Below are positions 6,285-50,082 of a stretch of 64,000 nucleotides of DNA, one piece after another; the first letter of the stretch is position 1, and each line of letters opens with the position of its first letter. The notes below the pieces were generated by a model. That model worked only from the letters and a program-made list of their open reading frames with translations. It searched no databases and was not told the origin of the DNA. The stretch comes from a virus. The position numbers were made by a program, and so were the translations under genes. The stretch spans positions 1 to 64,000 of the IMG/VR virus record IMGVR_UViG_3300021142_000012; one strand, 5' to 3'.

Positions 6285-6530
6285 ATGAGTACACATGAAG
6301 AAGCAGTAAAAGATATTAAAAAAGCAAAAAGCGTCGTAGATGCTGAAATAGTTAAAGCTAAAAAGTTTTTCACGCATACCAGTGTTAGTATGCTTAAGAG
6401 TGGAGTTAGAATCGCCGCAGGATTAGCACTTGCAGGTGGTGGTTGGTTAGAAATGAATCCCTACATTCAAGGTGCTGGACTATTACTGATAGTAGCAGAG
6501 ATTCTAGGAATTTTTGAGGAATTAGTATGA
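6285..6530 (+). CDS. Small membrane protein
   Basis: AAGGAG RBS before ATG 6285; two hydrophobic C-terminal segments. Confidence 0.65.
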   Translation: MSTHEEAVKDIKKAKSVVDAEIVKAKKFFTHTSVSMLKSGVRIAAGLALAGGGWLEMNPYIQGAGLLLIVAEILGIFEELV

Positions 6531-7444
6531 AAGAACTTTGGGTAGAGAAGTATCGCCCTAGTACCATTGACGGTTATGTCTTTACCGATGATCATCAAAG
6601 AAGTCAAATAGAATCTTGGATCGCTGACAAAAGCATTCCACATTTGTTGTTCAGTGGCACAGCCGGTGTAGGTAAAACTACCTTAGCTAAGATCTTAATC
6701 GAACAAATGGATGTACAGGATTCCGATGTCTTATCTGCTAACGGATCAAAAGAAGCACGTAAGATTGAGTGGGTTGATAAATTGATCACATTCTGTCAAA
6801 CTATGCCGTTTGGTGATTTTAAGATTGTCTTGATTGACGAAGCTGACTACATGAATCCAAATTCAGTACAACCTGCACTTCGTAACCTAATGGAGGAATA
6901 TAGTCATTCGGTTCGCTTTATACTAACTTGTAACTATCCTAATAAGATATTACCGGCTATCCATAGTCGCTGTCAGCGCATCCATATTGAAAAAACTGAT
7001 CAAACAGAGTTCACTGCTCGTGTTGCAACTATACTAGTTGAAGAAAATATCGAATTTGATCTTGATACCTTAGACAGTTATGTTAAAGCAACTTATCCAG
7101 ACTTGCGTAAGTGTATTAATAATTTACAAATGAACAGCCTAGATGGTAAGTTACATGTTCCAGAAAAGGGCGGTAGCGAAGAACGCGATTATAAATTTGA
7201 AATGGTCGAATTATTTAAAGCTGGTAAGATTGCAGAAGCACGTAAATTAATCTGTAGTCAAGCAAGTACAGATGAAATGGAAGAAGTATATCGCTGGCTT
7301 TATGATAATGTTGAAGTATTCGGAGATGCGAAGAAACAGGATAACGCTATCCTTATTATTAAACAAGGACTAGTGGATCATGCTTTAGTTATTGATCCAG
7401 AGATTAATCTGGCTGCTACATTAATTAGACTAGCACATCTATAA
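6527..7444 (+). CDS. Clamp loader AAA+ subunit (RFC small subunit/T4 gp44-like)
   Basis: WVEKYRP, Walker A GTAGVGKTT, Walker B IDEAD, SRC motif. Confidence 0.92.
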   Translation: MKELWVEKYRPSTIDGYVFTDDHQRSQIESWIADKSIPHLLFSGTAGVGKTTLAKILIEQMDVQDSDVLSANGSKEARKIEWVDKLITFCQTMPFGDFKIVLIDEADYMNPNSVQPALRNLMEEYSHSVRFILTCNYPNKILPAIHSRCQRIHIEKTDQTEFTARVATILVEENIEFDLDTLDSYVKATYPDLRKCINNLQMNSLDGKLHVPEKGGSEERDYKFEMVELFKAGKIAEARKLICSQASTDEMEEVYRWLYDNVEVFGDAKKQDNAILIIKQGLVDHALVIDPEINLAATLIRLAHL

Positions 7445-13989: not shown

Positions 13990-14476
13990 TCCAGTTTTAC
14001 AATCTAATGCAGTTGACTGGGATTTTAAATCTGGTAACGATCCTTTTACTCTTGAAAAAGAAATGATAGAAGTTATGCAGGCTAGTAATGGTATCGGACT
14101 AGCCGCTAATCAAGTTGGTTTACTTTCTAGAGTCTTTGTCATACAATTATTACAGCATCCAGAAATAAAAGAACCCTTTGCTATGTTCAATCCACAAGTT
14201 GTAGCAACTAGTGATGAGATGCAAACAGGTGAAGAAGGGTGCTTGAGCTTTCCAGATTTATTTTTAGAAGTTAAGCGACCAAAAGAAATCGTATCGAAAT
14301 ATTTTGATAAACATGGAAAAGAGTGTATAATAACATTAACAGATATTGATGCTAGATGTTTCTTACACGAATTAGACCATTTAAATGGCGTGTGCTTTAC
14401 AGAAAAAGTCAGTGCCTTAAAATTAGCATTTGCAATTAAAAAACAAAGGAAGCAGAATGGTAGAACCAAGCGATAA
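13967..14476 (+). CDS. def: Peptide deformylase
   Basis: GIGLAANQVG, EGCLS, HELDH. Confidence 0.95.
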   Translation: MNLVVAPNPVLQSNAVDWDFKSGNDPFTLEKEMIEVMQASNGIGLAANQVGLLSRVFVIQLLQHPEIKEPFAMFNPQVVATSDEMQTGEEGCLSFPDLFLEVKRPKEIVSKYFDKHGKECIITLTDIDARCFLHELDHLNGVCFTEKVSALKLAFAIKKQRKQNGRTKR

Positions 14477-16745
14477 TTTACAAGCAGTATTTGAAAAAGC
14501 AATTGATACTGCTAAGAAACTACATCATGAATATTTAACAATAGAGCATCTGTTGTTTGCCATGTTGATGGAGGATACCTTTGCAAATTGCGTAACCGGA
14601 TATGGTGCTAACATCGACGAATTGAAAAAAGATCTAGCAGACTACTTACAAAATAAATGCCAAGAAATTACCGTAGAAGATGTTGTAGTTAAACCCAAAA
14701 AGACACAGGCAGTTGAACGCATTCTTAATCGTGCGTTTACACAAGTTCTATTTAATGGACGTCAACGCATTGAGCCAACTGATGCGTTCCTTGCTATGAT
14801 GGGCGAAAAACGTTCATGGGCATTATATTATATTCAAAAGGTCGGCATTGATAAAGACAAGTTTAATGACTATGTTAACAATACCGTTGAAGAAAGTCCA
14901 GAGGAAGATGGACATGAAGATAACAGTAGTAGTTCAAAGGCACTAGCTTCATATACTACTAATCTTAATGATTCAGTTAAGAAAGGTAAAGTTGATCCGG
15001 TTATAGGCCGTATAGACGAACTAGAAAATATTGCCTTGGCCCTTGGCAGACGTAGTAAAAATAACATAATTCTAGTTGGAGATCCTGGAGTAGGTAAGAC
15101 TGCCATAGCAGAGGGACTTGCCTTCAATATCGTAAAAGGTGCCGTTCCGGATTTCTTAAAGGACTATACGGTCTATAACCTAGACATTAGTGCAATGCTT
15201 GCCGGTAGTAAATATCGTGGCGATTTTGAAGAACGCTTTAAAATGGTCTTGAAAGGTCTTTCTAAGAAAGGTAAGACTGTGTTGTTCATTGATGAAGCAC
15301 ACATGATCTCCGGTGCTGGATCTGCTAGCAACTCAGCTAACGATCTCGCTAACATGATGAAACCTGCTCTAAGCAAAGGCAATATCAAAGTTGTAGCATC
15401 AACTACATGGGAAGAATATCGTAAACACTTTGAAAAGGATCGTGCTTTGATGCGCCGTTTCCAACGCATCACTGTTGACGAGCCAACTGAAGAAGTATGT
15501 TTGCAGATCCTTAAGGGTATTAAGAAATACTATGAAGGATTCCATAATGTTAAGATTGACAATGAAGCATTACAAGCCGCAATTAAGTTGTCTGTTAAAT
15601 ATCAGACTGATAAAAAATTACCAGATAAGGCTATTGACTTAATCGATTTGGCTGCTTCACGCTTTAATCTAAAACTAGCAGAAGAACGAGTTATCACATC
15701 ACGCGAGATTCAATTTGAACTTGCTAAAATGACTAACATTCCTTTAGAGCAAGTTGCAGAAACAGAAAGTGCTCAAGTTATTGGACTACAGAACAAACTA
15801 GAATTAGATGTTTATGGTCAAGATGGCGCACTACAGGAAGTAGTTGATAAGATTATTGTTGCCCAAGCAGGATTAAAATCAGAAAATAAACCAATTGGAT
15901 CATTTGTATTCATGGGCCCAACAGGTTGCGGTAAGACTGAAACTGCTAAATCTTTATCTAAAAACCTAGGTGTTAAACTTCTACGTTTTGATATGAGTGA
16001 GTACCAGGAGAAGCATAGTATCTCTAAGTTAATTGGTAGCCCTCCGGGTTATGTTGGCTTCGAAGAAAATGCAGGACTATTGATTACACAGATCCAAGAA
16101 GCTCCTAATGCTGTTCTATTGCTAGACGAAGTTGAAAAAGCACATCCAGATGTAATGACAGTGCTGTTGCAAATCATGGATAATGGATTTGTTACTGGAT
16201 CAAATGGTAAACGAGCAGACTGCCGTAACTTAATTCTTATTCTTACTACTAATGCTGGTGCCGCTGATGCTGAAAAGAATACTATTGGATTCGGTGGACA
16301 AGAAAAAGATTATAGCGATAAAGAGCTTAAGAAATTCTTTACACCAGAATTCCGTAATCGACTTGATGCTATTATTACATTCAATAAACTATCTAAAGAC
16401 GTAATGGTCAAGATTGTTGATAAGTTTATCGAAGAGATTAGAGTACAAATTAAAGATAAAGGTATTCGTATCAAGGTTGATAAAGAAGCAGTTGAATGGT
16501 TAATTACTAAAGGCTTCGATCCTAAAATGGGTGCTCGTCCGTTAGCACGTGTTATTGACAAAGAAATTAAACGTGACCTTGCTCGTATGATGCTATTTGG
16601 TGATCTTAGAGCCGGTGGTTGGTTAACTGTTACTGTTGAAGATAATAAGCTTCGCTTAGTTGGTAAACCAAAGCCAGCTAAAACAGTACCATTGTTGACT
16701 ACTGATACTGCTACCGAGACAGAAGATGGAATACAAGGTAACTAG
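14457..16745 (+). CDS. clpA: ClpA-like Hsp100 ATPase
   Basis: Clp N domain; two AAA+ modules (GDPGVGKT, GPTGCGKT); IGF ClpP-docking loop. Confidence 0.92.
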   Translation: MVEPSDNLQAVFEKAIDTAKKLHHEYLTIEHLLFAMLMEDTFANCVTGYGANIDELKKDLADYLQNKCQEITVEDVVVKPKKTQAVERILNRAFTQVLFNGRQRIEPTDAFLAMMGEKRSWALYYIQKVGIDKDKFNDYVNNTVEESPEEDGHEDNSSSSKALASYTTNLNDSVKKGKVDPVIGRIDELENIALALGRRSKNNIILVGDPGVGKTAIAEGLAFNIVKGAVPDFLKDYTVYNLDISAMLAGSKYRGDFEERFKMVLKGLSKKGKTVLFIDEAHMISGAGSASNSANDLANMMKPALSKGNIKVVASTTWEEYRKHFEKDRALMRRFQRITVDEPTEEVCLQILKGIKKYYEGFHNVKIDNEALQAAIKLSVKYQTDKKLPDKAIDLIDLAASRFNLKLAEERVITSREIQFELAKMTNIPLEQVAETESAQVIGLQNKLELDVYGQDGALQEVVDKIIVAQAGLKSENKPIGSFVFMGPTGCGKTETAKSLSKNLGVKLLRFDMSEYQEKHSISKLIGSPPGYVGFEENAGLLITQIQEAPNAVLLLDEVEKAHPDVMTVLLQIMDNGFVTGSNGKRADCRNLILILTTNAGAADAEKNTIGFGGQEKDYSDKELKKFFTPEFRNRLDAIITFNKLSKDVMVKIVDKFIEEIRVQIKDKGIRIKVDKEAVEWLITKGFDPKMGARPLARVIDKEIKRDLARMMLFGDLRAGGWLTVTVEDNKLRLVGKPKPAKTVPLLTTDTATETEDGIQGN

Positions 16746-26187: not shown

Positions 26188-28854
26188 ATGTCTTATGTAG
26201 ACGCATGGTTTGATCGCGAAAATGATATCATTCGAGTGGTCGAGCGTAATAAAAAACAAGAACGTGAATTCCGTGACATTCCTGTCAAGCACACGTTTTA
26301 TGTAAAAGATCCACGAGGAAAGCATCAGTCGATCTATAGCGAGCCTGTTCAACGGATCGTTTGTAAGAATACCAAAGAGCTTCGCAAAGAAATGGCTATC
26401 AATTCTGGTAAGCAATTATACGAAGCCGATATCAATCCTATTTTTGTAACACTCAGTGAAAACTATCTTAATCAAGATCCTCCTAAGCTAAACACAGCAT
26501 TTTTCGATATTGAGGTAGACTTTGATCCAGAACGTGGCTATGCGTCACCCGATGATGCATTCATGCCAATTACTGCCATTGCTGTCTACCTACAATGGAT
26601 GCAAACTATGATATGTCTAGCTGTACCTCCAAAAACATTAACTATGGAGGAAGCTAAAGAACAGGTCAAAGAATTCGATAATGTAATGCTGTATGCAACA
26701 GAAGCAGAAATGCTAGATGTGTTTTTAGATTTAATTAAAGATGCTGACGTTATTAGTGGTTGGAACTCCGAAGGGTTTGACGTACCTTATACAGTTAATC
26801 GTGTAACTAAAGCTCTAAGTAAAGATGATACTAGACGGTTTTGCCTATTTGATCAATTTCCAAAAAGACGCGAATATGAAAAATATGGTCGACAATCAGT
26901 TACCTATGATTTTGTAGGTCGTGTTCACATAGATAGTTTAGAGCTGTATCGTAAATACACCTACGAAGAACGCCATTCGTATCGATTAGATGCTATTGCC
27001 GAATATGAATTAGGGCAACGTAAGACACAGTACGAAGGCACATTGGATCAGTTATATAATAATGATTTTAAAACATTCGTTGAGTATAATATCAATGACT
27101 GCCAACTGCTCGAGGATCTCGATAAGAAACTTAAATTTATCGACCTTGCTAACACACTAGCACACGAAAACACAGTGCTACTACAGACAACAATGGGTGC
27201 GGTAGCTGTTACAGAACAAGCTATTATTAATGAAGCACATCGTAGAAATATGATTGTGCCCAATCGCACTAAGATGGATGAACGCGAAGATACTCAAGCG
27301 GCTGGAGCCTATGTTGCTCATCCTAAAGAAGGACTACAAGATTGGATCGGATCTCTAGATATTAACTCACTATATCCTAGTGCGATTAGAGCACTTAACA
27401 TGGGGCCGGAGACTATTGTAGGACAGCTTCGTCCAATCCGAACTAAAGAATTTATTGAAAATCAAATGGCTAAAAGTAAAAGTTTTGCGGCTGCTTGGGA
27501 AGGTAAGTTCGGCACAGACGAATATGAAGCTGTAATGAATCAAGAAATTGGCACAGACATTACAATTGATTGGGAAAACGGTGATAGTGATATACTAAGT
27601 GCCGCAGAAGTCTATAGACTTATATTTGAAAGTAATCAACCTTGGATGTTGAGTGCTAATGGTACTATCTTTACACACGAGACAGAAGGTATTATTCCAG
27701 GGCTACTAAAACGTTGGTATGCTGAACGTAAAGAGATGCAGGCCAAACTCAAGGAGGCTATAAATGCTGGAAATAAAATTGAAGAAGAATATTGGGATAA
27801 ACGCCAATTGGTTAAAAAGATTAACCTCAATTCGCTTTACGGCGCCATCCTCAATCCTGGCTGTCGCTTTTTTGATAAGCGTATTGGCCAATCTACAACT
27901 CTTACTGGGCGTCAAATTGCCAAACACATGGCTTCTAAAGTCAATGAAATCATCACTGGTGAATACAATCACGTCGGAAAAGCAGTCATCTACGGTGATA
28001 CAGACTCCTGTTATTTTAGCGCCTACAAAACCCTTAAGAAAGAAATAGACAGTGGTGCCATTCCTTGGACGAAGGAAACTGTTATACAACTATATGATCA
28101 AATCGGTGAAGAGGTTAATCAAACCTTTCCGCAGTTTATGTTAGATGCGTTCCATGTACCAAAGGCCCGCGGTGAAGTTATTAAAGCTGGACGAGAAATT
28201 GTAGCATCAAAAGGCTTGTTCATTACTAAGAAACGATATGCTGTTCTCTATTACGATAAGGAAGGCAAGCGTGTAGACGTAGATGGTAAACCAGGTAAGA
28301 TCAAAGCCATGGGTCTAGACCTTAAGCGCAGTGATACTCCGGAGTTTATCCAAAACTTCTTAAGTGATGTACTCGAAATGGTTCTTATGGGTAAGCCCGA
28401 ACAAGAAGTACTAGATCATATTAGCGAATTCCGTATTAGATTCAAAGCTCGCCCAGGCTGGGAAAAAGGCTCGCCAAAGCGTGCTAACAATATCACAGAA
28501 TACGAAGCTAAGGAAAAGAAACAAGGTAAAGCCAATATGCCCGGACATGTCCGTGCAAGCATCAATTGGATGACATTAAAGCGAATGTTCGATGACAAGT
28601 ATTCAATGAATATTACAGACGGACAAAAGGTTATTGTTTGTAAGCTCAAGCCCAATCCTTTAGAATTTACCTCAGTGGCGTATCCAGTAGACGAATTGAG
28701 ACTACCGCAGTGGTTCAAAGACTTACCATTTGATCATTCTGAAATGGAGCAGACTATTATTGATAATAAATTAGATAATCTTATTGGAGTACTTCATTGG
28801 GATATTACCTCAACAGAAGAAAAGAATACTTTTAATAGTTTATTTGAGTTTTAA
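26188..28854 (+). CDS. Family B DNA polymerase (T4 gp43-like)
   Basis: Exonuclease FDIE, WNSEGFD and YNINDC; polymerase DINSLYPS, KINLNSLYG and YGDTDS. Confidence 0.97.
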   Translation: MSYVDAWFDRENDIIRVVERNKKQEREFRDIPVKHTFYVKDPRGKHQSIYSEPVQRIVCKNTKELRKEMAINSGKQLYEADINPIFVTLSENYLNQDPPKLNTAFFDIEVDFDPERGYASPDDAFMPITAIAVYLQWMQTMICLAVPPKTLTMEEAKEQVKEFDNVMLYATEAEMLDVFLDLIKDADVISGWNSEGFDVPYTVNRVTKALSKDDTRRFCLFDQFPKRREYEKYGRQSVTYDFVGRVHIDSLELYRKYTYEERHSYRLDAIAEYELGQRKTQYEGTLDQLYNNDFKTFVEYNINDCQLLEDLDKKLKFIDLANTLAHENTVLLQTTMGAVAVTEQAIINEAHRRNMIVPNRTKMDEREDTQAAGAYVAHPKEGLQDWIGSLDINSLYPSAIRALNMGPETIVGQLRPIRTKEFIENQMAKSKSFAAAWEGKFGTDEYEAVMNQEIGTDITIDWENGDSDILSAAEVYRLIFESNQPWMLSANGTIFTHETEGIIPGLLKRWYAERKEMQAKLKEAINAGNKIEEEYWDKRQLVKKINLNSLYGAILNPGCRFFDKRIGQSTTLTGRQIAKHMASKVNEIITGEYNHVGKAVIYGDTDSCYFSAYKTLKKEIDSGAIPWTKETVIQLYDQIGEEVNQTFPQFMLDAFHVPKARGEVIKAGREIVASKGLFITKKRYAVLYYDKEGKRVDVDGKPGKIKAMGLDLKRSDTPEFIQNFLSDVLEMVLMGKPEQEVLDHISEFRIRFKARPGWEKGSPKRANNITEYEAKEKKQGKANMPGHVRASINWMTLKRMFDDKYSMNITDGQKVIVCKLKPNPLEFTSVAYPVDELRLPQWFKDLPFDHSEMEQTIIDNKLDNLIGVLHWDITSTEEKNTFNSLFEF

Positions 28855-28859
28855 ATTGC

Positions 28860-28888
28860 TTGACTTTATCCAAAAACCTAAATATAAT
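28860..28888 (+). promoter_or_regulatory. Sigma70 promoter with an embedded CTAAATA
   Basis: TTGACT-17 nt-TATAAT. Confidence 0.75.
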
Positions 28889-28908
28889 CATACAACATGG
28901 AGAAACAT

Positions 28909-29640
28909 ATGAAAGATATATTACAAGACCTAGTAGCACATACACACTCACTAGGGTTTATTCCGCTAGTTAAAGTTTCTAGTACTGCATCAGCAACTGA
29001 TATCGAAGCTATGGCCGAAGATCGTTCAGTTATTGTACAGGCTAAAACAAATAGCCCAGTAGATGAGTTCGAAGGCGTATTTGGTATGCCTAACTTAAAC
29101 AAGTTAGATATTCATTTAAAGTGTCCAGAATATAAAGAAGATGCAAAGATTAGTATTGTTACAGCAGAACGTAACGGTGAAACTATTCCAACAGGTTTAC
29201 ATTTTGTAAATGCCGCAGGCGATTTTGAAAATAACTATCGTTTTATGAATACTGAAGTTATCAATGAAAAACTTCGTTCAGTTAAGATGCGTCAAGTACC
29301 TTGGGACATTGAGTTTGAACCAACTATTGCTAGTATTCAAAAATTACGCTTTCAAGCGGCGGCACACTCGGAAGAGACAGTGTTTGAAGTTAAGACAGAC
29401 GGTACTAATTTGATATTCAGCTTTGGCGATGCGTCAACACACGCTGGCTCATTTATTTTTGCATCGAATGTTGTTGGCAAATTGAAACAAACTTGGGCAT
29501 GGCCTGTTAATCAAGTTATGGCAATCTTAGCGTTAGCTGGCGACAAAACTATGCGTATTGCAGATGCAGGTGCTATGCAAATTAGTGTAAACAGTGGTTT
29601 AGCTGAGTACAACTATATTCTTCCAGCACAAAGCAAGTAA
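28909..29640 (+). CDS. Putative sliding clamp (gp45/PCNA-like)
   Basis: ~243 aa, immediately after the polymerase; beta/alpha two-domain pattern ending YNYILPA; a clamp loader is present in the window. Confidence 0.6.
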   Translation: MKDILQDLVAHTHSLGFIPLVKVSSTASATDIEAMAEDRSVIVQAKTNSPVDEFEGVFGMPNLNKLDIHLKCPEYKEDAKISIVTAERNGETIPTGLHFVNAAGDFENNYRFMNTEVINEKLRSVKMRQVPWDIEFEPTIASIQKLRFQAAAHSEETVFEVKTDGTNLIFSFGDASTHAGSFIFASNVVGKLKQTWAWPVNQVMAILALAGDKTMRIADAGAMQISVNSGLAEYNYILPAQSK

Positions 29641-31322
29641 TGAATAAGAATCTAACTGCTACACAAAACGACTATGCCTTCTTTTTGCCGGCAACGTCTG
29701 GATTCTATAGTACTTTCATAGGCAAACAACGCTATAGTAACTATGTAGATCCTGCACGTATTCCTGCTAGTTTTACCAACGGCGTAGAAGGTTTGAACTA
29801 TCTAGAACCCGATAAAGGTATGTTTTATTTCGATCATTGTTTGTATTCGGCAGGACATGCTAACTTAGATTTGTCTAAGCCAGATGAAACCGAAGACATG
29901 TTTCGTAATAGAGATCGTACAACCAGTTGGGTATTAGGTGACTCTGGTGGTTTCCAGATCGGTAAAGGTGTGTGGGCAGGTGAATGGAAGGATCCGACCG
30001 GTCCAGAAGTGCTGGCTAAATTACAGGATTGTATTGCTAAGGGTGTTGAATTAATCCCAGTATACGATGCTAGCGGAACACAAAAAGTAGATAAGAACGG
30101 AAATCCAAAGTTTACTAAGTTTGATCATGTTAAAGATTATACTGCTAAATTAGAAGCCGCACAAAAGAAGCGTGAACAAGTATTAGCATGGATGGATGCA
30201 CTTATGGACTATGGCATGGTACTTGATATTCCAGCATGGGTAGAACGCAGTGAAGTCGGTAAGGCGGCAACCGGTATTGAAAGTTATGATCAAGCCGTAG
30301 AAGCAACCAAATACAACAATGAATACTTTATCAAGCATCGTACAGGTGCTTGCAAGTTCTTAAATGTGCTTCAAGGCGAAACACACACCCAAGCTGAAGA
30401 CTGGTATCAGAAAATGAAAGACTTTTGTGATCCTAAAGTCTATGGCGACAAGGCTTTTAATGGTTGGGCCATGGGTGGACAGAATATGTGTGACGTAGAA
30501 TTAGTTTTGAAAAGATTAGTGGCATTACGCTTTGACGGACTCCTTAAAAAGGGTCAACATGATTGGATGCACTTCCTGGGCACCTCTAAGTTAGAGTGGG
30601 CAACTTTATTAACTGACATACAACGTGCCGTAAGGAAATATCATAATGAAAACTTTACCATCTCTTTTGATTGCGCCTCACCGTTCCTTGCAACAGCAAA
30701 CGGTCAAATCTACATCAACACTGAAACAGAGCATAACGAAAAATGGGTCTACCGTATGCAGGCTAGCGCAGACGATAAAAAGTACGCACACGACACAAGA
30801 CTGTTTAAAGATGCAGTAATACAAGACAAATGGTTTGATAAGTTTGAATCTAGTCCTATTATCGATCAAGTGCAAATAAAAGATATCTGTATCTATGCGC
30901 CCGGCGACCTAAATAAGAATAGTAAAGAAGGTAAGACTAGTTGGGATAGTTTTAGCTATGCTATTATGATGGGACATAATGTGTGGATGCATATTAATGC
31001 TGTACAAGAAGCCAATCGTCAATATGATAAAGGTGTTTCTCCTGCTATGTTGATTCAAAGACTTACAGGAAAATTATTTAAAGATGTAGTAGATGAGATA
31101 TTCTCTATCAATGATAGGACTTTAGCTCTTGAAGCTGTCAACAAGTATCATAAATTTTTTGAAACTATTATTGGTACTAGAGGTGCAACAGGCAAAAAAC
31201 TCACTAATGCACATACCTATGCAGACGAACTTGACATTCCTCGAGTTGATTATAGTGATTTGAAACCTGTAAAAAAAGAAGAACCCGTAACTAACACATT
31301 TGACAGTTTATTTGAAGTATGA
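29640..31322 (+). CDS. dpdA: DpdA-like DNA-guanine transglycosylase (TGT fold)
   Basis: TGT motifs DSGGFQ, MVLDIP, VLQG, AMGG, HFLG, SFDCAS and HN; neighbours folE, queD and queE. Confidence 0.8.
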   Translation: MNKNLTATQNDYAFFLPATSGFYSTFIGKQRYSNYVDPARIPASFTNGVEGLNYLEPDKGMFYFDHCLYSAGHANLDLSKPDETEDMFRNRDRTTSWVLGDSGGFQIGKGVWAGEWKDPTGPEVLAKLQDCIAKGVELIPVYDASGTQKVDKNGNPKFTKFDHVKDYTAKLEAAQKKREQVLAWMDALMDYGMVLDIPAWVERSEVGKAATGIESYDQAVEATKYNNEYFIKHRTGACKFLNVLQGETHTQAEDWYQKMKDFCDPKVYGDKAFNGWAMGGQNMCDVELVLKRLVALRFDGLLKKGQHDWMHFLGTSKLEWATLLTDIQRAVRKYHNENFTISFDCASPFLATANGQIYINTETEHNEKWVYRMQASADDKKYAHDTRLFKDAVIQDKWFDKFESSPIIDQVQIKDICIYAPGDLNKNSKEGKTSWDSFSYAIMMGHNVWMHINAVQEANRQYDKGVSPAMLIQRLTGKLFKDVVDEIFSINDRTLALEAVNKYHKFFETIIGTRGATGKKLTNAHTYADELDIPRVDYSDLKPVKKEEPVTNTFDSLFEV

Positions 31323-32536
31323 AAAAACGAATAGGTATCATCGGAGTCGGTACTGCTGGCATTGTTAATCTTTCTTATTTTTTAAGTTTGTTAAGCAATG
31401 ACTACGAAGTCGTATCTATATACGATCCGTCGATACCTATTCTCGGTATTGGTGAAAGTACTAATCCCGGATTTATTAGAATACTAGAGCAGGGTACTAG
31501 ATTTTCTATTTCCGAAGATACGCACCATCTTGATAGCACATACAAATTTGGAACCCAATTTATTAATTGGCGAGAGCATGATTGGCTTAATCCATTAATT
31601 GGCGGCGGTATCGCTGTGCATTTTAATAATTTTAAATTAAAAGAATTTGCTTTTGAACGATTTGCCAAATTATGGCCAAAAAAGTTTTCTGTAATTGAAG
31701 GAACAGTTAATGAAACTATTGATAAGTTTAATAGTGTTAAGCTCATCATCGATGGAAGCGAAGAACTATTTGATTATATCATAGATTGTAGCGGATTTCC
31801 CAAGGACTATTCTACAGACTATGTTCATAGTAGTTGTAGTCTGCTAAACCATTGCTATGTACATAGTTTTGAAAAATTTGATCCTATACCCTATACAGAA
31901 CATATTGCTACCCAAAACGGTTGGATGTTCGGTATTCCGTTGCAATCTAGAAAAACATATGGCTACTTATTCAATGACACTATCACTACAGAAGACGATG
32001 CCAAACAAGATATGGCAGCTACTTTAAAAATTTCAGTTAGCGAATTAAAATTAAGAGAATACAAATTCAAACCTTATTATACTACTAGACTAGTTAATAA
32101 TAATATTATGAAGAATGGTAATCAAGCATTGTTCTTTGAACCGATTAGTGCTACTTCGATTAATCAGTATGTTAGTACCTGTCATATTTTGTTTGATTAT
32201 ATTATGGAAAATATATCTGAAGAACAGGCTAATGCACAATTTATTCACGAATCGAATGTAACTGAGGATATCATAAATTATTATTATCACGGTGGTACTA
32301 ATTTTGACAGCACATTTTGGCAAGCAGCCAAAAAAAATGCCATCAATAATCTTAAAGATAACCAACGTTTTAAAACAATCTTAGACCAAAATCAAATGGC
32401 AAATGACATCGGACTTCCATATAATGGCCCCGCCCATTTGTTCACTGCTTATAGTCTACAGATTATTGATGAAGGATTTGGCTATAATTACTTCAAAGGT
32501 TCTCCAAGACCGTTTGACAATGTAGACAAATCATAG
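31319..32536 (+). CDS. Divergent flavin-dependent tryptophan-halogenase-like protein
   Basis: GVGTAG, GIGEST, TYKFG, IDCSGF, GWMFGIP, FFEPISAT. Confidence 0.7.
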   Translation: MKKRIGIIGVGTAGIVNLSYFLSLLSNDYEVVSIYDPSIPILGIGESTNPGFIRILEQGTRFSISEDTHHLDSTYKFGTQFINWREHDWLNPLIGGGIAVHFNNFKLKEFAFERFAKLWPKKFSVIEGTVNETIDKFNSVKLIIDGSEELFDYIIDCSGFPKDYSTDYVHSSCSLLNHCYVHSFEKFDPIPYTEHIATQNGWMFGIPLQSRKTYGYLFNDTITTEDDAKQDMAATLKISVSELKLREYKFKPYYTTRLVNNNIMKNGNQALFFEPISATSINQYVSTCHILFDYIMENISEEQANAQFIHESNVTEDIINYYYHGGTNFDSTFWQAAKKNAINNLKDNQRFKTILDQNQMANDIGLPYNGPAHLFTAYSLQIIDEGFGYNYFKGSPRPFDNVDKS

Positions 32537-32570: not shown

Positions 32571-33098
32571 ATGAAACGTAATTATAAAACAGGAGTATCA
32601 GAACAAGTTACTTTGTTTACAGGTATAGAAATTGAACGTACCCCTGCATATGGTATGAAAACATTATTTGTAGTAGGAGTACAGGATGGCGATGTATTAG
32701 GGCATATAGCTAAAATACAAAATTGTACTCACGTATATTTCGGTGCTAATCAGAGTTTTCCAAAGCTAAAAACTAATGATGCAGCCGGTTGGAAACCTTG
32801 GGAAGATATGATTCAAAGCTGTTTGGATGCAGGATTATGGTGCACCTTAGATTTTGATGTTGCCCAAGCTGAAGGATTGCTTGAAAGTGGTTTAACCGAA
32901 TGTCGTAGATTTATTCCACAAGTTAGTGTAAAATTACCTTATCTAGCACAGTTAGGTTATAATGCTACAATTAAAATCGACGATAAAGATTTTGAAGCAA
33001 GTAATCCAGGTGTATGGTGTGTACCGATTGGTGCCATTACACAACGCAAGTACTTTACCAATTGGGATGAATATGGCAAGGATGAAATCATAGCATGA
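32571..33098 (+). CDS. Hypothetical protein in the deazaguanine cluster
   Basis: 175-aa ORF; first gene after the promoter. Confidence 0.7.
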   Translation: MKRNYKTGVSEQVTLFTGIEIERTPAYGMKTLFVVGVQDGDVLGHIAKIQNCTHVYFGANQSFPKLKTNDAAGWKPWEDMIQSCLDAGLWCTLDFDVAQAEGLLESGLTECRRFIPQVSVKLPYLAQLGYNATIKIDDKDFEASNPGVWCVPIGAITQRKYFTNWDEYGKDEIIA

Positions 33099-33688
33099 AC
33101 AACCAAATTAAACAACAAATAGAAAATCTAATATGCAAGCCCTTAATAGGCATGCCAGTTCCTACTAATCAAGGCGGTCACGCCGGAAGAGAAGTTGAAA
33201 CGATTCTAGAAAATATGGGTGTTCCGATTAAAAAAGGATCAGGTGCAGATATTACAATACAGGTAACGTTGCTCGGTATAAAATATTTTATCGAAGTAAA
33301 GACACGAGATAAAGACGCAACAAGCCCACATACAGTCGGAACTATACATACAGATAATTTGTCAGTATGCTATGAAGATTCAAATATATGGGAAAAATTG
33401 CAATATCAAATTAGAATTACTACAGAAAATGGTATAATAATTAAATCTGAATTATATGATTTTACTAGAAAACATATACAAGATAAATTTAAAGAAGCAT
33501 ATGATTATGGTATAAAGTATATTATTGCTAACGAATTTTGTTCATCTACACCAATAGATGGGCATTGGGCATATTTTGAAAGAAAGGCTGCCGAATCAAA
33601 TAGTTTTCAATACCGGTTAAGCAAAAATGATATGCCTGCAATAGAAAGAATGGCCAAGACAGTTGACAATTTATTTGAAGAACTTTAA
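33095..33688 (+). CDS. PD-(D/E)xK restriction-endonuclease-like protein
   Basis: GREVE...GADI...IEVKTR. Confidence 0.6.
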   Translation: MNNQIKQQIENLICKPLIGMPVPTNQGGHAGREVETILENMGVPIKKGSGADITIQVTLLGIKYFIEVKTRDKDATSPHTVGTIHTDNLSVCYEDSNIWEKLQYQIRITTENGIIIKSELYDFTRKHIQDKFKEAYDYGIKYIIANEFCSSTPIDGHWAYFERKAAESNSFQYRLSKNDMPAIERMAKTVDNLFEEL

Positions 33689-33689
33689 C

Positions 33690-34079
33690 ATGATAATTCG
33701 ACAAGATATTAGACCAAACAAAATGATCTGGGTTACCTTTCGTAAAGAAGGTATTCATCGTTATCCGGCTGCCGCTACAGATCCTAACTTGTGTACCGCA
33801 GGAGAATATGATGTTAGTTTCCTAGCTAATGCACATAGACATATATTCCATTTTAAAGTTTGGATTGGTGTAGAACATAACGATCGCGATATTGAATTTA
33901 TTCAATTTAAACGCTGGTGTGAAAGTTTGTACAATCAAGATATTTTACAGCTTGATTTTCAAAGTTGCGAAATGATGAGTGATGCATTGTATGCTCAGAT
34001 TGAAGCAAGGTACCCGGGCCGTGAGGTTTGGATTGAGGTCTCCGAAGATGGAGAAAATGGTAGTTTCATCAAATATTAA
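33690..34079 (+). CDS. queD: QueD/PTPS-like T-fold enzyme
   Basis: EGIH...HRHIFHF...DIEF...SCEMM...EVSEDGENG. Confidence 0.7.
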   Translation: MIIRQDIRPNKMIWVTFRKEGIHRYPAAATDPNLCTAGEYDVSFLANAHRHIFHFKVWIGVEHNDRDIEFIQFKRWCESLYNQDILQLDFQSCEMMSDALYAQIEARYPGREVWIEVSEDGENGSFIKY

Positions 34080-34089: not shown

Positions 34090-34356
34090 ATGGCTCTGAA
34101 AAATTATAAAGAGTATAAGTATTTTGAAAATCGTCCTGATGTAGTAAAGATTTTTGAAGATCTTGAAAAGTTCCAAGATTTTTGTCGGTTGGAAATGGCT
34201 CCATTCGATGAAAGTCACTTGTACAACAGAGAAAGCTGGGCATGGAGAAACTATGAAAAGAGTCTTCGTCCTAAAAAGCCTTGGGATGGTCAAAAGAAGC
34301 AATGGACAGGTGAACGTAAACCTTACCAAGGAAAGAACTCAAGATATCAACAATGA
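34090..34356 (+). CDS. Hypothetical protein
   Basis: AAGG RBS before ATG 34090. Confidence 0.6.
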   Translation: MALKNYKEYKYFENRPDVVKIFEDLEKFQDFCRLEMAPFDESHLYNRESWAWRNYEKSLRPKKPWDGQKKQWTGERKPYQGKNSRYQQ

Positions 34357-35447
34357 CAGTCTATATAGTTGATCTAGAAGCAGTAGAAACGAGGTACACG
34401 GGTCAGTGGAAGACTCATGTGCCTCACCTCTTACGAAAGGCAGGACACGATGTTCAAATTATCTCTGGGCCTGAGGATATTCCTAAAGCCACTACTCCTG
34501 GTGCTTTTCTTAATTTTGGTGGCACCAATATATACAAGGCTAGTCAAGTTGAAAAGATTAGTCGCTTATTTTGCGCCGGATCAATTAATCCTGGTGATCA
34601 CTTCTTGTTTACTGATGCTTGGCATCCTGGTATCATAAATTTAAAGTATATGAGTGAACTGTTACAGATTCCTGTAACAACACATGGCTTGTGGCATGCT
34701 GGATCATATGATCCTCAAGATTTCTTAGGAAGATTAATTGGCAATGCTAAATGGGTGCGACGAGCAGAACAAAGTTTTTATCACGCTTATGATCATAACT
34801 ATTTTGCTACAGAATTCCATGTGAAATTATTCTTTGACGAATTATTACACAATGGGTTGGCTAGTGAAAATCCGTGGTACGAAGAAGATTGGGCAGAACG
34901 CTATAAAGGTGGAAAGATTGTGCGCACTGGTTGGCCAATGGAATATATGGAAGATGCCTTGCTAATGTATAAAGGTATGGAAAAGCGTGATCTTATTCTT
35001 TTTCCACACAGAATCGCTCCAGAAAAGCAAGTTGAAATTTTTAGAGACTTAGCAGAACATTTACCACAATATGAATTTGTAGTGTGCCAAGATAAGCAAT
35101 TAAGTAAAAACGAATATCATAATTTGTTAGGTGAAGCGAAAATGGTATTCAGTGCCAACTTACAAGAAACGCTAGGTATTAGTTGGTATGAAGGATGCAT
35201 TGTGGGTGCTATTCCCATGGTTCCTGATAGATTGAGCTATAGTGAAATGGCATTAGATGATTTCAAATATCCTAGCGAATGGACTGAAAACTATGCAAGC
35301 TATGAAAGACACCGTGAAGAAATTATCGCTAAGATTAAAAGTCAGATGGATTCGTATCAGAGATTGGTACCGACAATTTACAAACAAACCGAAATCCTAC
35401 GCGACAATTTCTTTTCCGCAGACGTGTTACTCGACCATATCAAGTAA
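34353..35447 (+). CDS. GT-B fold glycosyltransferase
   Basis: FPHRIAPEK and the ETLGISWYEG (Ex7E) motif. Confidence 0.8.
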   Translation: MTVYIVDLEAVETRYTGQWKTHVPHLLRKAGHDVQIISGPEDIPKATTPGAFLNFGGTNIYKASQVEKISRLFCAGSINPGDHFLFTDAWHPGIINLKYMSELLQIPVTTHGLWHAGSYDPQDFLGRLIGNAKWVRRAEQSFYHAYDHNYFATEFHVKLFFDELLHNGLASENPWYEEDWAERYKGGKIVRTGWPMEYMEDALLMYKGMEKRDLILFPHRIAPEKQVEIFRDLAEHLPQYEFVVCQDKQLSKNEYHNLLGEAKMVFSANLQETLGISWYEGCIVGAIPMVPDRLSYSEMALDDFKYPSEWTENYASYERHREEIIAKIKSQMDSYQRLVPTIYKQTEILRDNFFSADVLLDHIK

Positions 35448-36834: not shown

Positions 36835-37045
36835 TCGATTAGAAGAATTATATCAAGAGATGTTAAATGTAACATCGCATATGGTTGAAGAATATGGTGG
36901 TATGGAAGTTGCTGCTATTATGATGGCGCAGGCCCTTAGCATTTATAAAACTGGTTTAGATGAAATCGACTATAACAAAATGGTCGATAGTATTTCTGCT
37001 AGTCGTTCTAAGGTTCAAAAATTTACTCCAACTTTTTTACAATGA
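36827..37045 (+). CDS. Hypothetical protein
   Basis: AAGGA RBS; 72 aa. Confidence 0.6.
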   Translation: MTDRLEELYQEMLNVTSHMVEEYGGMEVAAIMMAQALSIYKTGLDEIDYNKMVDSISASRSKVQKFTPTFLQ

Positions 37046-37590
37046 AAAAACGTACTATTAGTAATGACGAATATAGAGGACTAGTTCAAAATATTTGTCG
37101 AGAAATCGAATTAAGCAAGTGGCGTCCAGATTATATTGTGGGTATTACTCGAGGTGGACTGGTTCCTGCTGTTATGATTAGTCAATATTTTGATATACCC
37201 ATGTGGACCTTACGAGTTAATCTGCGTGATCATGCAGAAACAGAATCAAACTCTTGGATGGCTGAAGATGCTTTCGGCTATATACCAGAGGACTGGCGTG
37301 AAGGTATTGATAAACGTGACGATCCTACATTTAGCAAAAAAATACTTGTAGTTGATGATATCAATGATACAGGTGCTACTATTAATTGGATTACAGAAGA
37401 TTGGCAATCCAACTGCTTGCCTAAGGAAGAACGTTGGAATCATGTATGGAATCAGAATGTTCGATTTGCAGTAGTCATCGATAATGTAGCTAGCAAGTGT
37501 AATGTTAAGATGGATTTTTGTGGCGAAGAAATTAACAAAGAAGAAGATCCAGTATGGATTGACTTCCCGTATGAAGGATGGTGGAAATGA
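37042..37590 (+). CDS. Type I phosphoribosyltransferase (xanthine/guanine PRT-like)
   Basis: VGITRGGLVPA and the PRPP-binding ILVVDDINDTGAT. Confidence 0.88.
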   Translation: MKKRTISNDEYRGLVQNICREIELSKWRPDYIVGITRGGLVPAVMISQYFDIPMWTLRVNLRDHAETESNSWMAEDAFGYIPEDWREGIDKRDDPTFSKKILVVDDINDTGATINWITEDWQSNCLPKEERWNHVWNQNVRFAVVIDNVASKCNVKMDFCGEEINKEEDPVWIDFPYEGWWK

Positions 37591-37799: not shown

Positions 37800-37962
37800 A
37801 CTAACTCCTCAAGCTCTTGAAGAAAAGATTAAAAAAGTCGAAGACGATTTAAAGCTATTACGTACTACAGGTGATGCTAGTCGTAAAACTGAAGTTCTTA
37901 ACGAATATATTGAATATCTTAAAGACGAGTTAAGAGACCTACAGAGTGCTCGCCGCCCATAA
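37792..37962 (+). CDS. Small coiled-coil protein (56 aa, not in the ORF track)
   Basis: MTELTPQALEEKIKKVEDDLK...SARRP. Confidence 0.6.
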   Translation: MTELTPQALEEKIKKVEDDLKLLRTTGDASRKTEVLNEYIEYLKDELRDLQSARRP

Positions 37963-38515
37963 TTTAAACTCTCTTAGTCCGTTTATTCGCGGATATTACA
38001 TAGATCCGGAGATATGCGATCGCATTGTAGCTGAATCCAATCTGCGTAAGAAAGATTTTATGCAGGGTCAACTAATCAATAATGCTGTAGAATTTACAGG
38101 TGGACGATTAGACGATTATACCCCTGCTGTCCGAGATCCATATGTCGAAGCACTGTTTGAGGTAATCGAAGAGTACAAGAAAGAGTTTAAATTTTCTTAT
38201 GAAATTATAGATATGTGGGGCTTACCTCCCGGAATGAAAGTACAATACTATACTCCAGGGCAAGCATTTAGAATATGGCATTGCGAAAGTAGTGGGGATC
38301 CTGTTTCCACATCAAGACATTTAGTCTATATGACATATCTAAATACGATTGAAGACGAAGGTGGTACTGAATTTTATCATCAACAGATAAAGGTTAAACC
38401 AGAAAAAGGATTGACCCTAATTTGGCCTGTTGATTGGACTCATACACACCGAGGAGTTCCTTCGGCTACAGAAGAAAAATATATTATTACAGGATGGTGG
38501 ACGTTTCAACGATGA
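37946..38515 (+). CDS. 2OG-Fe(II) oxygenase (prolyl-hydroxylase-like)
   Basis: WHCE...YLN...GGTEF...HTHRG...KYIITGW. Confidence 0.88.
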   Translation: MLAAHNLNSLSPFIRGYYIDPEICDRIVAESNLRKKDFMQGQLINNAVEFTGGRLDDYTPAVRDPYVEALFEVIEEYKKEFKFSYEIIDMWGLPPGMKVQYYTPGQAFRIWHCESSGDPVSTSRHLVYMTYLNTIEDEGGTEFYHQQIKVKPEKGLTLIWPVDWTHTHRGVPSATEEKYIITGWWTFQR

Positions 38516-39075
38516 AAGAACATGTTATAAACAAAACTAACGATTTTATTCGTGGATATTACATAGATCCAGAGATATGCGATCGTATAGTATCTGAATC
38601 TAAAATACACAACTTTAGAAGTGGTGTAATGCAGTATACTGATATTAATCTAGAAGAGTTTAGTAAGGAAACTTGTGATTCATATACAAACGCCCTGTTT
38701 GAAGTTATTGAAGAATATAAAAAAGAGTTCCGGTGGAGTTATGAAAAGGTAGTCATGTGGGGATTGCCTCAAGGTATCAAAGTACAACACTATGCTCCAG
38801 GCAAATGGTACGATCAATGGCATTGCGAACGTGCAGGTGATGTACCATCACTATTTCGTCATCTAGTATACATGACATACTTAAACGATGTCGAAGATGG
38901 CGGTGGTACTGAATTCTATCATCAAAAGATTATAACTAAGGCAGAAAAAGGATTGACCCTAATTTGGCCGGTTGACTGGACTCATATGCACAGAGGCGTA
39001 GTTGCACCAACTGAAGAAAAAATGATTATTACCGGATGGTGGATGTTTAAAGGACCAGAAGATGAGATTAAGTAA
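38512..39075 (+). CDS. 2OG-Fe(II) oxygenase, tandem paralog
   Basis: WHCE...YLNDVEDGGGTEF...HMHRG...KMIITGW. Confidence 0.88.
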   Translation: MKEHVINKTNDFIRGYYIDPEICDRIVSESKIHNFRSGVMQYTDINLEEFSKETCDSYTNALFEVIEEYKKEFRWSYEKVVMWGLPQGIKVQHYAPGKWYDQWHCERAGDVPSLFRHLVYMTYLNDVEDGGGTEFYHQKIITKAEKGLTLIWPVDWTHMHRGVVAPTEEKMIITGWWMFKGPEDEIK

Positions 39076-39653: not shown

Positions 39654-40466
39654 TTGACAACATTTACAACAGAAGACTTAAAAGCAGTATTAGAAAATAA
39701 TCCTGATCTAGTTAAAGAAGCACCATATCATCCAGGATACGAGGATGCTGCCATGAACATGGGCGATAAAGGATATGAAGAAGCAAATCTTGCTGATGCT
39801 ATCCGTTTCAATATGAAGCGTGATAAGAAACGCTTTTGGGCCGGAGACAATATTAGTGAATATGTAGTTGGGCATAGAGATGAACTAATTGCTAATGCAA
39901 CTAAAGCCTTTGAAGGAGTGTTAGACGCACTCTTGATTGATAGAGAAACAGATCCAAACTCACAAGGCACAGCACGACGCTTGGCCAAGATGTATTTTAA
40001 CGAAATTATGGGAGGTCGATATGATCCAGCACCAGATTGCACAGCTTTTCCAAATGATAGCCAAGATAGATATGAAGGTATGCTTGTTGTTCGTAGCGAG
40101 TTGCGTTCTATGTGTAGCCATCACCATCAACCTGTTAGTGGTGTTGCATACATCGGAATTATTGCAGCCAATAAACTTATTGGCTTGTCTAAATATACTA
40201 GGATTGCTCAGTGGTGTGCTCGTCGTGGCACTCTTCAAGAAGAACTCTGTAACGACATCGCCCGAGAAATAATGCGGGCAACTGATTCAGAGCATGTGGG
40301 CGTGTATATTCAGGCCACGCATGGTTGCTGTGAAAATCGTGGCATCATGGCGCATTCGAGTCTGACACAGACCACTGTGCTCAAAGGTGCATTCAACACA
40401 GACCCAGGAACCAAGAAAGAGTTCATGGACAATATCAAACTTCAACAGGACTTTGCCCCAAGATGA
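39654..40466 (+). CDS. folE: GTP cyclohydrolase I
   Basis: SMCSHH, IGLSK, LQEEL, HGCCENRG; TTG start. Confidence 0.95.
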   Translation: MTTFTTEDLKAVLENNPDLVKEAPYHPGYEDAAMNMGDKGYEEANLADAIRFNMKRDKKRFWAGDNISEYVVGHRDELIANATKAFEGVLDALLIDRETDPNSQGTARRLAKMYFNEIMGGRYDPAPDCTAFPNDSQDRYEGMLVVRSELRSMCSHHHQPVSGVAYIGIIAANKLIGLSKYTRIAQWCARRGTLQEELCNDIAREIMRATDSEHVGVYIQATHGCCENRGIMAHSSLTQTTVLKGAFNTDPGTKKEFMDNIKLQQDFAPR

Positions 40467-41899: not shown

Positions 41900-42330
41900 T
41901 GAAAAAATTATTAAGAAGATGGCTAGGTATTAGTGCGTTAGAAGCTGAAAAAGAATTATTACAACAGGCTAGAGACAAAGCAGTCGCTGAAACAGTGATA
42001 GCTCAAACCAAAGAAGAACAAGCCAAAATGGATCCAAAGGATCGTGCTACTGCTCGAGGAGAGCCGTGGGTATCTGTGTTAGACACACATATTAACAAAG
42101 ATAATATTCGTAATGGATTTTTTGAGTTAGATTGGAATGATATCTTTGTTCAAGAATTGATTGCTTCCGGATATGGCTATGAAGCAGATCCGCCAGAGCA
42201 AATTGTAGATCGTTGGTTTAGAGATCTAGCAAGAAATATGTTAGCAGAAGAAGGAATGGATCCTAATAGATCTACTTCTGGATATATTAATGTATCTAAG
42301 ATCAGTAATACCAAATCGGAAATATCATGA
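41899..42330 (+). CDS. Hypothetical protein
   Basis: ORF coupled by TAATG overlap. Confidence 0.65.
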   Translation: MKKLLRRWLGISALEAEKELLQQARDKAVAETVIAQTKEEQAKMDPKDRATARGEPWVSVLDTHINKDNIRNGFFELDWNDIFVQELIASGYGYEADPPEQIVDRWFRDLARNMLAEEGMDPNRSTSGYINVSKISNTKSEIS

Positions 42331-42917
42331 CCTATAAAGTTATAGATTCGAATGAGTATATCGATACATATAATTTTAGTTCATTAATTACCAAAGCTGA
42401 TACTCAAGAAATAATGCAGATTTCTAAAAGCATTATTGACAGCGGTCTTTATTTTGAAAATAGCCCAAAATATCAAACTAAAGAAAATTTGTTTGGGCGA
42501 GATGAAAAAGTATTCTTAAAAATGCGCCAAAGTTTTATCTATAGTTGCTTTATGTATTTGGGTAAGGAAGTAAAGATTAAAGGCATCAATAGTTGGGTGT
42601 TTATGACTAAGAAAAGCGATGAACCTGATCGTGACAATCTTTGGCACAAGCATCATTACGATGAACCCTGGGGTAAATTGAGCGGCATTTTCTATTTACA
42701 TATACCAGATGATATTGTTGATAGAGAACTATGCGGTACTGAATTTAGTGAAACTAGTGAAAATGTAAGAGCCCAATTACCAACTAAAACCTTCTTTGTA
42801 AGGCCAAAAGACTTGACTTGGCACATATATCCTAGTAAAATGTGGCATAGGTCCGGAATTACCAATTCCGATGAATATCGTTTTGTTTATGCCGCAGATA
42901 TGGATTATTACGAATGA
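42327..42917 (+). CDS. Putative 2OG-Fe(II)/DSBH oxygenase
   Basis: WHKH...LSGIFYL...GTEF...YPSKMWHR. Confidence 0.65.
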   Translation: MTYKVIDSNEYIDTYNFSSLITKADTQEIMQISKSIIDSGLYFENSPKYQTKENLFGRDEKVFLKMRQSFIYSCFMYLGKEVKIKGINSWVFMTKKSDEPDRDNLWHKHHYDEPWGKLSGIFYLHIPDDIVDRELCGTEFSETSENVRAQLPTKTFFVRPKDLTWHIYPSKMWHRSGITNSDEYRFVYAADMDYYE

Positions 42918-43603
42918 TAAATCGTATTAGGAGTTTGTATCCTACAACAGAGTTTACTCCCAGTTGGAATTTTCCCATCTATACTAGTCAATGGGCTGAT
43001 ATTGAAAAAATAGACAAGATTAGAAATTGGCTACTTGAAAAAGAACAAGATTTTATTACTGCATATCCATATCATCACGATGGCGGAGCAGCCTTAGGAA
43101 AAGATAGTGTTACTAGTAGACATGGATTATATAGTCTATTTTGGTTTGAAAAAGAAATTCCAGAAATTATAGATCTATTAGAGTTTATTAGAAAATCTTA
43201 CATTGATTTTATTACAGAAGAAAATGCTAGTCCAAGAGAATCATATATTGTTTCTTGGTTTAATGTCGCTAGAAAGGGTCAAGATATTAAACAACATGCT
43301 CACGGCGCTGATCATGAATCGTATCTAAGTGGCAATATGCATCTAGATACCTATGACACATATAATGCATTTATATCACCTTATGATGATAGATCTTCTT
43401 TTATCAGAGATAATATCAAAGGCGGTATTTCTATGTTTCCAAGTTGCTTACCTCATTACAGTAGTGTGTACCAAGGCGATGAACCTCGCGTAAGTATAGC
43501 GTTTGATTTAAGAATTAAGCCAACAAAACAACATGGTTTCGGAGTTGAATCAATTCCGTTCATGAATACTAGCATTTATAATCAACTCACCGCAGAAAGT
43601 TAA
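42914..43603 (+). CDS. Putative 2OG-Fe(II) oxygenase (TIGR02466-like)
   Basis: SWFN...HAH...YLSG...FPSCLPH...RVSIAFD. Confidence 0.75.
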   Translation: MINRIRSLYPTTEFTPSWNFPIYTSQWADIEKIDKIRNWLLEKEQDFITAYPYHHDGGAALGKDSVTSRHGLYSLFWFEKEIPEIIDLLEFIRKSYIDFITEENASPRESYIVSWFNVARKGQDIKQHAHGADHESYLSGNMHLDTYDTYNAFISPYDDRSSFIRDNIKGGISMFPSCLPHYSSVYQGDEPRVSIAFDLRIKPTKQHGFGVESIPFMNTSIYNQLTAES

Positions 43604-50007: not shown

Positions 50008-50023
50008 TTTGGTTTTGTGCCGA

Positions 50024-50052: not shown

Positions 50053-50082
50053 ATATACTATAGTGAACAAACAGGAGCAGAA

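Follow-up and report, generated by a model that had tools for sequence, protein, structure and literature searches.

We analysed a 64,000-nucleotide stretch of DNA (hereafter the window; positions 1 to 64,000 of IMG/VR virus record IMGVR_UViG_3300021142_000012) from an uncultured giant phage, represented by a 108-kb contig that CheckV rates as 29% complete. Downstream of a T4-type DNA polymerase gene and a candidate sliding clamp gene, the window encodes a 560-amino-acid DpdA-like protein, a predicted enzyme for the exchange of guanine in DNA, which ends in the same peptide as the polymerase. This protein is probably a clamp-tethered DNA transglycosylase, in which the polymerase's docking peptide, carried on a flexible tail, would couple base exchange to replication.

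The genes lie in the order PolB, 247-amino-acid open reading frame (ORF), 560-amino-acid ORF (29640-31322), and the stop codon of the 247-amino-acid ORF overlaps the start of the 560-amino-acid ORF in TAATG at 29638-29642, as a sequence-only reading of this DNA had described for a polymerase, a putative clamp and a dpdA-like gene. That reading started the 247-amino-acid gene at 28909, and this is the ATG at which its homologs begin. The main features of the locus are as follows, with pLDDT denoting the predicted local distance difference test.

26188..28854, + strand: T4-type family B DNA polymerase, 888 amino acids (PF00136, PF03104; phrog_262, E 4e-200 over residues 6-886)
28825..28854, + strand: polymerase C-terminal peptide NTFNSLFEF and stop codon
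28861..28889, + strand: putative sigma-70-like promoter TTGACT-17 nt-TATAAT upstream of the candidate clamp gene, read from the sequence
28897..29640, + strand: candidate sliding clamp, 247 amino acids (phrog_12062, function unknown; second ATG at 28909)
29640..31184, + strand: predicted TGT-fold catalytic core of the DpdA-like protein, residues 1-515 (structure model)
31185..31292, + strand: predicted disordered linker of the DpdA-like protein, residues 516-551 (model pLDDT <55 from residue 516; length and sequence variable among homologs)
31293..31322, + strand: DpdA-like C-terminal peptide NTFDSLFEV and stop codon, predicted clamp-docking motif (short helix at 553-559 in the model)

The polymerase and the DpdA-like protein share a conserved C-terminal peptide

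The polymerase ends ...STEEKNTFNSLFEF (translation of 28705-28860) and the 560-amino-acid ORF ends ...KKEEPVTNTFDSLFEV (translation of 31173-31325), and the two are identical at 7 of their 9 final residues, which bears out the earlier claim that one peptide closes both proteins. Across the whole 108-kb contig, an end of the [DN][SN]LFE type was found on only three replication or modification genes, namely the polymerase, the 560-amino-acid ORF and an ORF at 33095-33688. The polymerase tail EEKNTFNSLFEF lines up with EEKASLDFLFG of T4, where the gp43 tail is known to bind gp45 and recurs, on variable linkers, in gp55 and gp33 (PMC2988020); the RB69 gp45 clamp has been co-crystallised with the 11 C-terminal residues of its polymerase (reviewed in PMC2988020). 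This equivalence in position to the clamp-binding tail of T4 gp43 supports clamp docking of the shared peptide.

Homologs of the 560-amino-acid protein were collected from about 220 viral-contig loci, covering the family to about 30% identity and giving 192 distinct complete homologs; megablast of the locus against a phage collection had returned no match, and scans of viral contigs that used distant homologs as single-protein queries had found almost nothing. The nearest cultured relatives are jumbo phages, comprising the PA5oct group, Vibrio phage 2.275.O and Sinorhizobium phage Phosso. The tail motif was scored as [FY]xx[LF]F within the last 50 residues of the 560-amino-acid homologs and of 1260 control ORFs (other ORFs of at least 200 amino acids from the same loci), and within the last 16 residues of the polymerases. 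It was present in 148 of the 192 homologs compared with 14 of the 1260 controls, and the peptide match is therefore not due to chance; related polymerases kept it in 178 cases out of 190.

Aligning the polymerase and DpdA C-termini across related phages, which had been proposed as a check, showed the motif to be conserved in both families, with FF and LF variants co-occurring in polymerase and homolog (4/4 versus 5/129; Fisher p 1e-5, with shared ancestry ignored). In Vibrio phage 2.275.O, for example, the polymerase ends NNTDLFDW and the 560-amino-acid homolog NNNDLFGW, and in PA5oct the polymerase ends HFDSLFGW and the homolog carries an internal SFNSLFDV. The shared motif, conserved family-wide, is strictly terminal in only 18 of the 192 homologs, that of this phage included, which represent a minority form. 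In 131 homologs it directly follows a conserved GTRG-x-GKK-x-N segment and is itself followed by an unforeseen extension of about 30 amino acids, of which 41% are Asp or Glu, usually with an LxxLE sequence. This acidic extension was found at loci L007-L083, at most other loci and in PA5oct (L001:5998-7620), and on no other ORF in the examined loci.

The structure model of the 560-amino-acid protein shows disorder from residue 516, agreeing with the earlier placement of the tail on a linker beyond the catalytic core; according to the model, the peptide sits on a flexible, disordered linker.

The 560-amino-acid protein is a predicted long DpdA-like transglycosylase

The call of a tRNA-guanine transglycosylase (TGT) fold, which had been made from the letters of the translation, was confirmed by the structure model, which has a TGT-type (beta/alpha)8 barrel, though the protein is invisible to Pfam and PHROGs. 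There was no match to Pfam TGT (PF01702) for the protein itself at E up to 10, nor for 67 aligned homologs at E up to 0.01; no PHROG matched, and the 67-sequence family profile found no PDB sequence. When the family was compared with E. coli Tgt by hhalign (prob 91.7%), GDSGGFQ/TDSGGFQ, LDIP/FDEC and FDCASP/FDCVMP were aligned, and with them the three catalytic and substrate Asp residues of TGT (D89, D143 and D264 of E. coli Tgt); the match ended ahead of the Zn subdomain. In the alignment of 67 homologs, used both for these Pfam checks and for invariance, D101-S-G-G, P198, H311, G314 and D344 were invariant and D196 was kept in at least 90%.

The enzyme phiST DpdA3 (CGPG_00065) gave an hhalign prob of 83% over 88 columns only, short of full-length similarity; it has 259 amino acids, lacks an LF tail and adjoins a DnaE-type polymerase. 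In contrast, the present type of enzyme, whose family comprises 895 clusters at 50% identity, is about 500-600 amino acids long, keeps DSGGFQ, which phiST DpdA3 lacks, carries the clamp-type tail and has no Pfam TGT match. Because of this position outside Pfam TGT and the only partial match to DpdA3, we read the 560-amino-acid protein as belonging to a separate, long, previously unnamed DpdA-like subfamily, with activity and substrate predicted from sequence. Its resemblance to DpdA1-4 lies in a TGT-derived origin and in being encoded with FolE/QueD/QueE-type genes, DpdA being the expected agent of post-replicative exchange of G for 7-deazaguanine (PMC10516641). Two such genes lie downstream in the window.

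39654..40466, + strand: GTP cyclohydrolase I, FolE (PF01227, E 1e-38; 56% identical to FolE of Vibrio phage 2.275.O)
41054..41899, + strand: QueE-like radical-SAM protein (30% identical to the annotated QueE of PA5oct, E 4e-27; weak PF04055 match)

The earlier assignment to DpdA thus stands on the TGT fold, the catalytic Asp residues and the 7-deazaguanine gene cluster, but the protein falls outside both Pfam TGT and the small DpdA3 type. DNA is presumably the substrate of the enzyme.

The 247-amino-acid protein is the only clamp candidate of a phage with its own polymerase and clamp loader

The phage encodes a clamp loader subunit.

6527..7444, + strand: gp44-like clamp-loader subunit, 305 amino acids (phrog_168 'clamp loader of DNA polymerase', E 5e-78)

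A phage with a gp44-like loader can be taken to use a clamp of its own, and the 247-amino-acid protein is the only candidate to serve with this loader and the replicative polymerase. A search with PF09116 and PF02916 found no canonical gp45 domain in four large relatives, these being PA5oct (complete-genome record), a 372-kb record (CheckV 100%), Phosso and the partial Vibrio phage 2.275.O. A gene for a homolog of the 247-amino-acid protein is found no more than 10 kb from the DpdA-like gene in 221 of 225 loci; in 198 of 202 distinct loci it is upstream of and co-oriented with the latter. It directly follows PolB in this phage, in PA5oct, in Vibrio phage 2.275.O and also in Serratia phage BF, which has no DpdA and whose polymerase ends NTGFFAWS.

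By hhalign, residues 3-247 of the family align with residues 1-225 of gp45, collinear from end to end (P 3e-5 in global and 5e-4 in local mode). Two GenBank records name homologs of the protein PCNA or sliding clamp, as do its ESM Atlas neighbours, and both were taken as leads only; a test for an internal repeat of N-domain and C-domain within the 247-amino-acid protein was not significant. For the product of 28909-29640 a clamp fold thus has indirect backing, from the loader, from the failure to find any other clamp and from the weak collinear alignment, and it is the weakest point of the case.

The tail is predicted to dock on the candidate clamp

Complex prediction was carried out with three copies of the 247-amino-acid protein, supplied with its own alignment, together with residues 516-560 of the enzyme, and with three controls. 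The enzyme tail scored 0.62 versus 0.21 for the best of the three controls. Of solved complexes, 58 of 80 attain that mark, as do 2 of 110 mismatched pairs, but these figures are only a rough guide here, since the run relied on an alignment of our own and on the clamp in triplicate. The runs had at least 73% of contacts in common with a partner pLDDT of at least 65, and the 247-amino-acid protein was modelled as a trimer with a pLDDT of about 90.

The model of the complex brings F554, L557 and F558 of the enzyme into contact with clamp residues 42-46, 127-134, 224-226 and 241-247, the best-defined contacts being those of T553, F554, L557 and F558 with residues 43-46, 132, 224-226 and 241-245. 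The predicted pocket lies between the clamp halves beside the C-terminus, on the clamp face that bears the C-terminus, and includes the nearly invariant V45, G225, P243 and A244. The enzyme tail is thus predicted to dock in a canonical-looking interdomain/C-terminal clamp pocket. Because clamp-peptide complexes have already been solved, this pass may partly mirror memory, that is, likeness to the known structures of RB69 gp45 and PCNA with their peptides.

Evidence against the clamp tether, and alternative explanations

A number of results pull away from a clamp-tethered enzyme. The 247-amino-acid protein and 89 homologs gave no Pfam gp45 or PCNA match at E up to 1, and the family profile matched no PDB sequence, returning noise only. 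The hhalign comparison with a reference alignment of 90 gp45 sequences was weak (prob 30-46%) and that with nine T4-like gp45 sequences weaker (prob 12%). AlphaFold2 (AF2) prediction of the 247-amino-acid protein from its single sequence gave a pLDDT of 35, and so of the modelling that had been proposed for 28909-29640 with the peptide, the docking of the DpdA tail came through, with controls failing, but the single-sequence clamp fold did not. In PA5oct the homolog bears the annotation 'structural protein', which derives from mass spectrometry of virions. On the side of the enzyme, the motif is internal and followed by the acidic extension in most homologs, and in its strict form it is missing from 43 of 192 (about a quarter), some of which retain a looser xSLFE; the Zn site of TGT (CxCxxC...H) is not conserved, with no invariant or near-invariant Cys in the 67-sequence alignment. 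Finally, for T4 itself, a 2025 preprint reports that neither alpha-glucosyltransferase nor beta-glucosyltransferase interacts with gp45, be it in vitro or in vivo (doi 10.64898/2025.12.06.692756). The earlier proposal of a clamp-riding DpdA is partly supported, namely in its motif, disordered tail, synteny and predicted docking, but its clamp fold is reached only indirectly.

Three other explanations were considered, each of which we rate below the clamp tether. The one that survives best, though unlikely, is that the shared peptide docks on another partner, such as the host beta clamp, the clamp loader, a helicase or a single-stranded DNA-binding protein, and that the 247-amino-acid protein is, for example, a virion or scaffold protein. 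The weak sequence and profile matches behind its clamp fold and the detection of its PA5oct homolog in virions would both fit such a role, and xSLF resembles the QL[SD]LF-like motifs by which proteins bind the bacterial beta clamp. However, the phage encodes a gp44-like loader and no other clamp was found in complete relatives, the 247-amino-acid gene follows PolB even in jumbo phages without DpdA, its alignment to gp45 is collinear from end to end, and it is on this protein that the complex model docks the motif while the controls fail.

It is less probable again that the TGT-fold protein acts on tRNA or merely excises bases, a case in which its tail may still dock on the clamp. The failure of all 67 homologs to match Pfam TGT, the unconserved Zn-site cysteines and the partial similarity to phiST DpdA3 are what such a different chemistry would lean on. 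Against it, the three TGT Asp residues are aligned and invariant or nearly so; the gene adjoins FolE and QueE here, and QueE, QueF, QueC, FolE and a YhhQ-type transporter in relatives; and the G-containing sites of PA5oct DNA are restriction-resistant, with no other DpdA candidate reported (PMC12191111). A clamp tether also makes sense for an enzyme of DNA. A last alternative, that the shared hydrophobic-acidic end marks proteins for turnover or regulation, for instance as a degron recognised by the Lon-like ATP-dependent protease encoded at 14430-16745, is very improbable: exposed hydrophobic C-termini can serve as degrons, but the polymerase tail is equivalent in position to the clamp-binding tail of T4 gp43, the motif is internal in most homologs, unlike a C-terminal degron, and its docking on the clamp candidate passes the controls.

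A model for base exchange from the sliding clamp, and its relation to known systems

If the clamp-tethered reading is right, the 560-amino-acid enzyme would insert a 7-deazaguanine base supplied by the FolE/QueE-type genes nearby, and would be built of a folded core followed by a floppy linker ending in a hydrophobic-acidic peptide, F-x-S-L-F-E, as on the T4-type polymerase. The 247-amino-acid gene would encode a divergent sliding clamp, loaded by the gp44-like loader and co-transcribed with the transglycosylase, and the peptide would dock in the interdomain/C-terminal pocket of this clamp. The enzyme would then be drawn to clamps that remain on freshly copied phage DNA, and by this route we infer that base exchange is coupled to the replication fork; riding the clamp would also confer processivity and selectivity for phage over host DNA.

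The arrangement resembles the clamp ligands of T4 and RB69 in that the polymerase and other phage proteins share a hydrophobic-acidic peptide, which is short and borne on an unstructured linker that varies. It differs from them in that the clients here are a predicted base-exchange enzyme and a nuclease-like protein rather than transcription factors, the candidate clamp has diverged beyond the reach of the Pfam gp45 models, and the motif is internal with an acidic extension in most relatives. Eukaryotic DNMT1 and UNG2 bind PCNA through PIP (PCNA-interacting protein) boxes, and as in these cases a modifying or repair enzyme would be brought to new DNA by a short clamp-binding peptide, here a predicted one; unlike them, it belongs to another domain of life, uses another motif and is predicted to perform base exchange instead of methylation or excision. 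The idea of a phage DNA-modifying enzyme working from the clamp at the fork was raised before for T4 alpha-glucosyltransferase and gp45, in an older hypothesis based on in vitro work; that case involves no polymerase-like tail, whereas a conserved polymerase-like motif is present here. The paper describing DpdA3 and DpdA4 (Cui, Hutinet et al. 2023, PMC10516641) mentions a clamp 0 times, and a search of the full-text literature on DpdA or deazaguanine with clamp, replisome or jumbo phages found no description of a clamp-coupled DpdA, in keeping with the novelty that had been claimed for it.

The 7-deazaguanine marks of phages are thought to be made post-replication by DpdA, and there is no explanation yet of how certain phages exchange so much of their guanine and still spare host DNA. 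A clamp-docking tail would offer a concrete mechanism, namely recruitment to freshly loaded phage clamps, and if true a DNA base-exchange enzyme would join the clients of sliding clamps. The analysis also delimits an enzyme family of very large size to which current domain libraries are blind. It likely identifies, too, the missing transglycosylase of the culturable PA5oct-like Pseudomonas phages, in which restriction digests have recently led to the inference of G-modification.

Other bearers of the tail

The third protein of the contig with this type of end is encoded downstream of the DpdA-like gene.

33095..33688, + strand: nuclease-like ORF, 197 amino acids, ending TVDNLFEEL, third tail bearer (weak Pfam NOV_C match)

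All 10 of its 10 complete homologs have [LFM]F within the last 7 residues, and it shows a D...E-x-K arrangement collinear with that of MutH. A MutH-like identity was not adopted and serves as a lead only, hhalign to E. coli MutH being not significant (prob 6%).

It is possible, though we would hold it only tentatively, that the clamp acts in these jumbo phages as a toolbelt for a hypermodification and DNA-policing set consisting of the base-exchange enzyme, the PD-(D/E)xK-like nuclease and, in relatives, HNH nucleases, each with the docking peptide of the polymerase. If so, tethering would let a post-replicative transglycosylase reach near-complete, phage-specific guanine replacement, and could account for a possible failure of such enzymes when they are expressed by themselves in another host. 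Small HNH endonucleases (PF01844) adjoin the DpdA-like gene in some relatives and end in a polymerase-like NNFFEEV or SKFFEEV (L143:9225-9635, L127:11616-12032); judged by these sequences, they may be clamp-riding, perhaps homing, nucleases.

A census of C-terminal tails in the complete 372-kb relative found no bearers beyond the polymerase, and no gp55-like or gp33-like tail bearers were seen. Loosely similar LF ends on two more ORFs of the contig, a virion protein and a baseplate hub, were taken as coincidences, as was an LF-like end on a T4 baseplate protein in the 372-kb relative.

The 7-deazaguanine gene cluster and neighbouring genes

In PA5oct the order is polymerase, 247-amino-acid homolog, small ORF and DpdA-like gene EST35_0316, with QueE farther on; behind the DpdA-like gene of Vibrio phage 2.275.O come QueF, a YhhQ-type transporter, QueC and FolE. 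No QueC or QueF was found in the 64,000-nucleotide window by similarity to the Vibrio phage copies. PA5oct DNA resists restriction enzymes with G in their sites, and its QueE- and QueD-like genes have been noted without a transglycosylase being named (PMC12191111). The polymerase gene of PA5oct is split by an ORF for a Hef-like homing endonuclease (L001:1-4834).

Two flavin-dependent halogenase-like genes lie inside the deazaguanine cluster of the window, at 31319-32536 and 44596-46086 (PF04820; phrog_2928, E 1e-70 and 1e-106), and may provide a tailoring step on the modified base. The first of them overlaps the stop codon of the DpdA-like gene as ATGA, and a gene of this kind was near the enzyme in 3 of about 85 loci, those of this phage and two close relatives. 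Genes at 33663-34079, 34353-35447, 37042-37590, 37946-39075 and 42327-43603 form a set that includes homologs of PA5oct ORF318 and ORF317, and the 364-amino-acid product among them has a faint glycosyltransferase signal. A phosphoribosyltransferase and four 2-oxoglutarate-Fe(II) (2OG-Fe(II)) oxygenase-like genes also belong to this set.

Farther from the cluster, the gene for the Lon-like protease (771 amino acids; phrog_4871, E 3e-251) precedes the replication block, and a large HNH endonuclease family protein of 421 amino acids at 50017-51282 (phrog_1314, E 1e-109) follows an AAA ATPase at 48919-50007 (phrog_1297).

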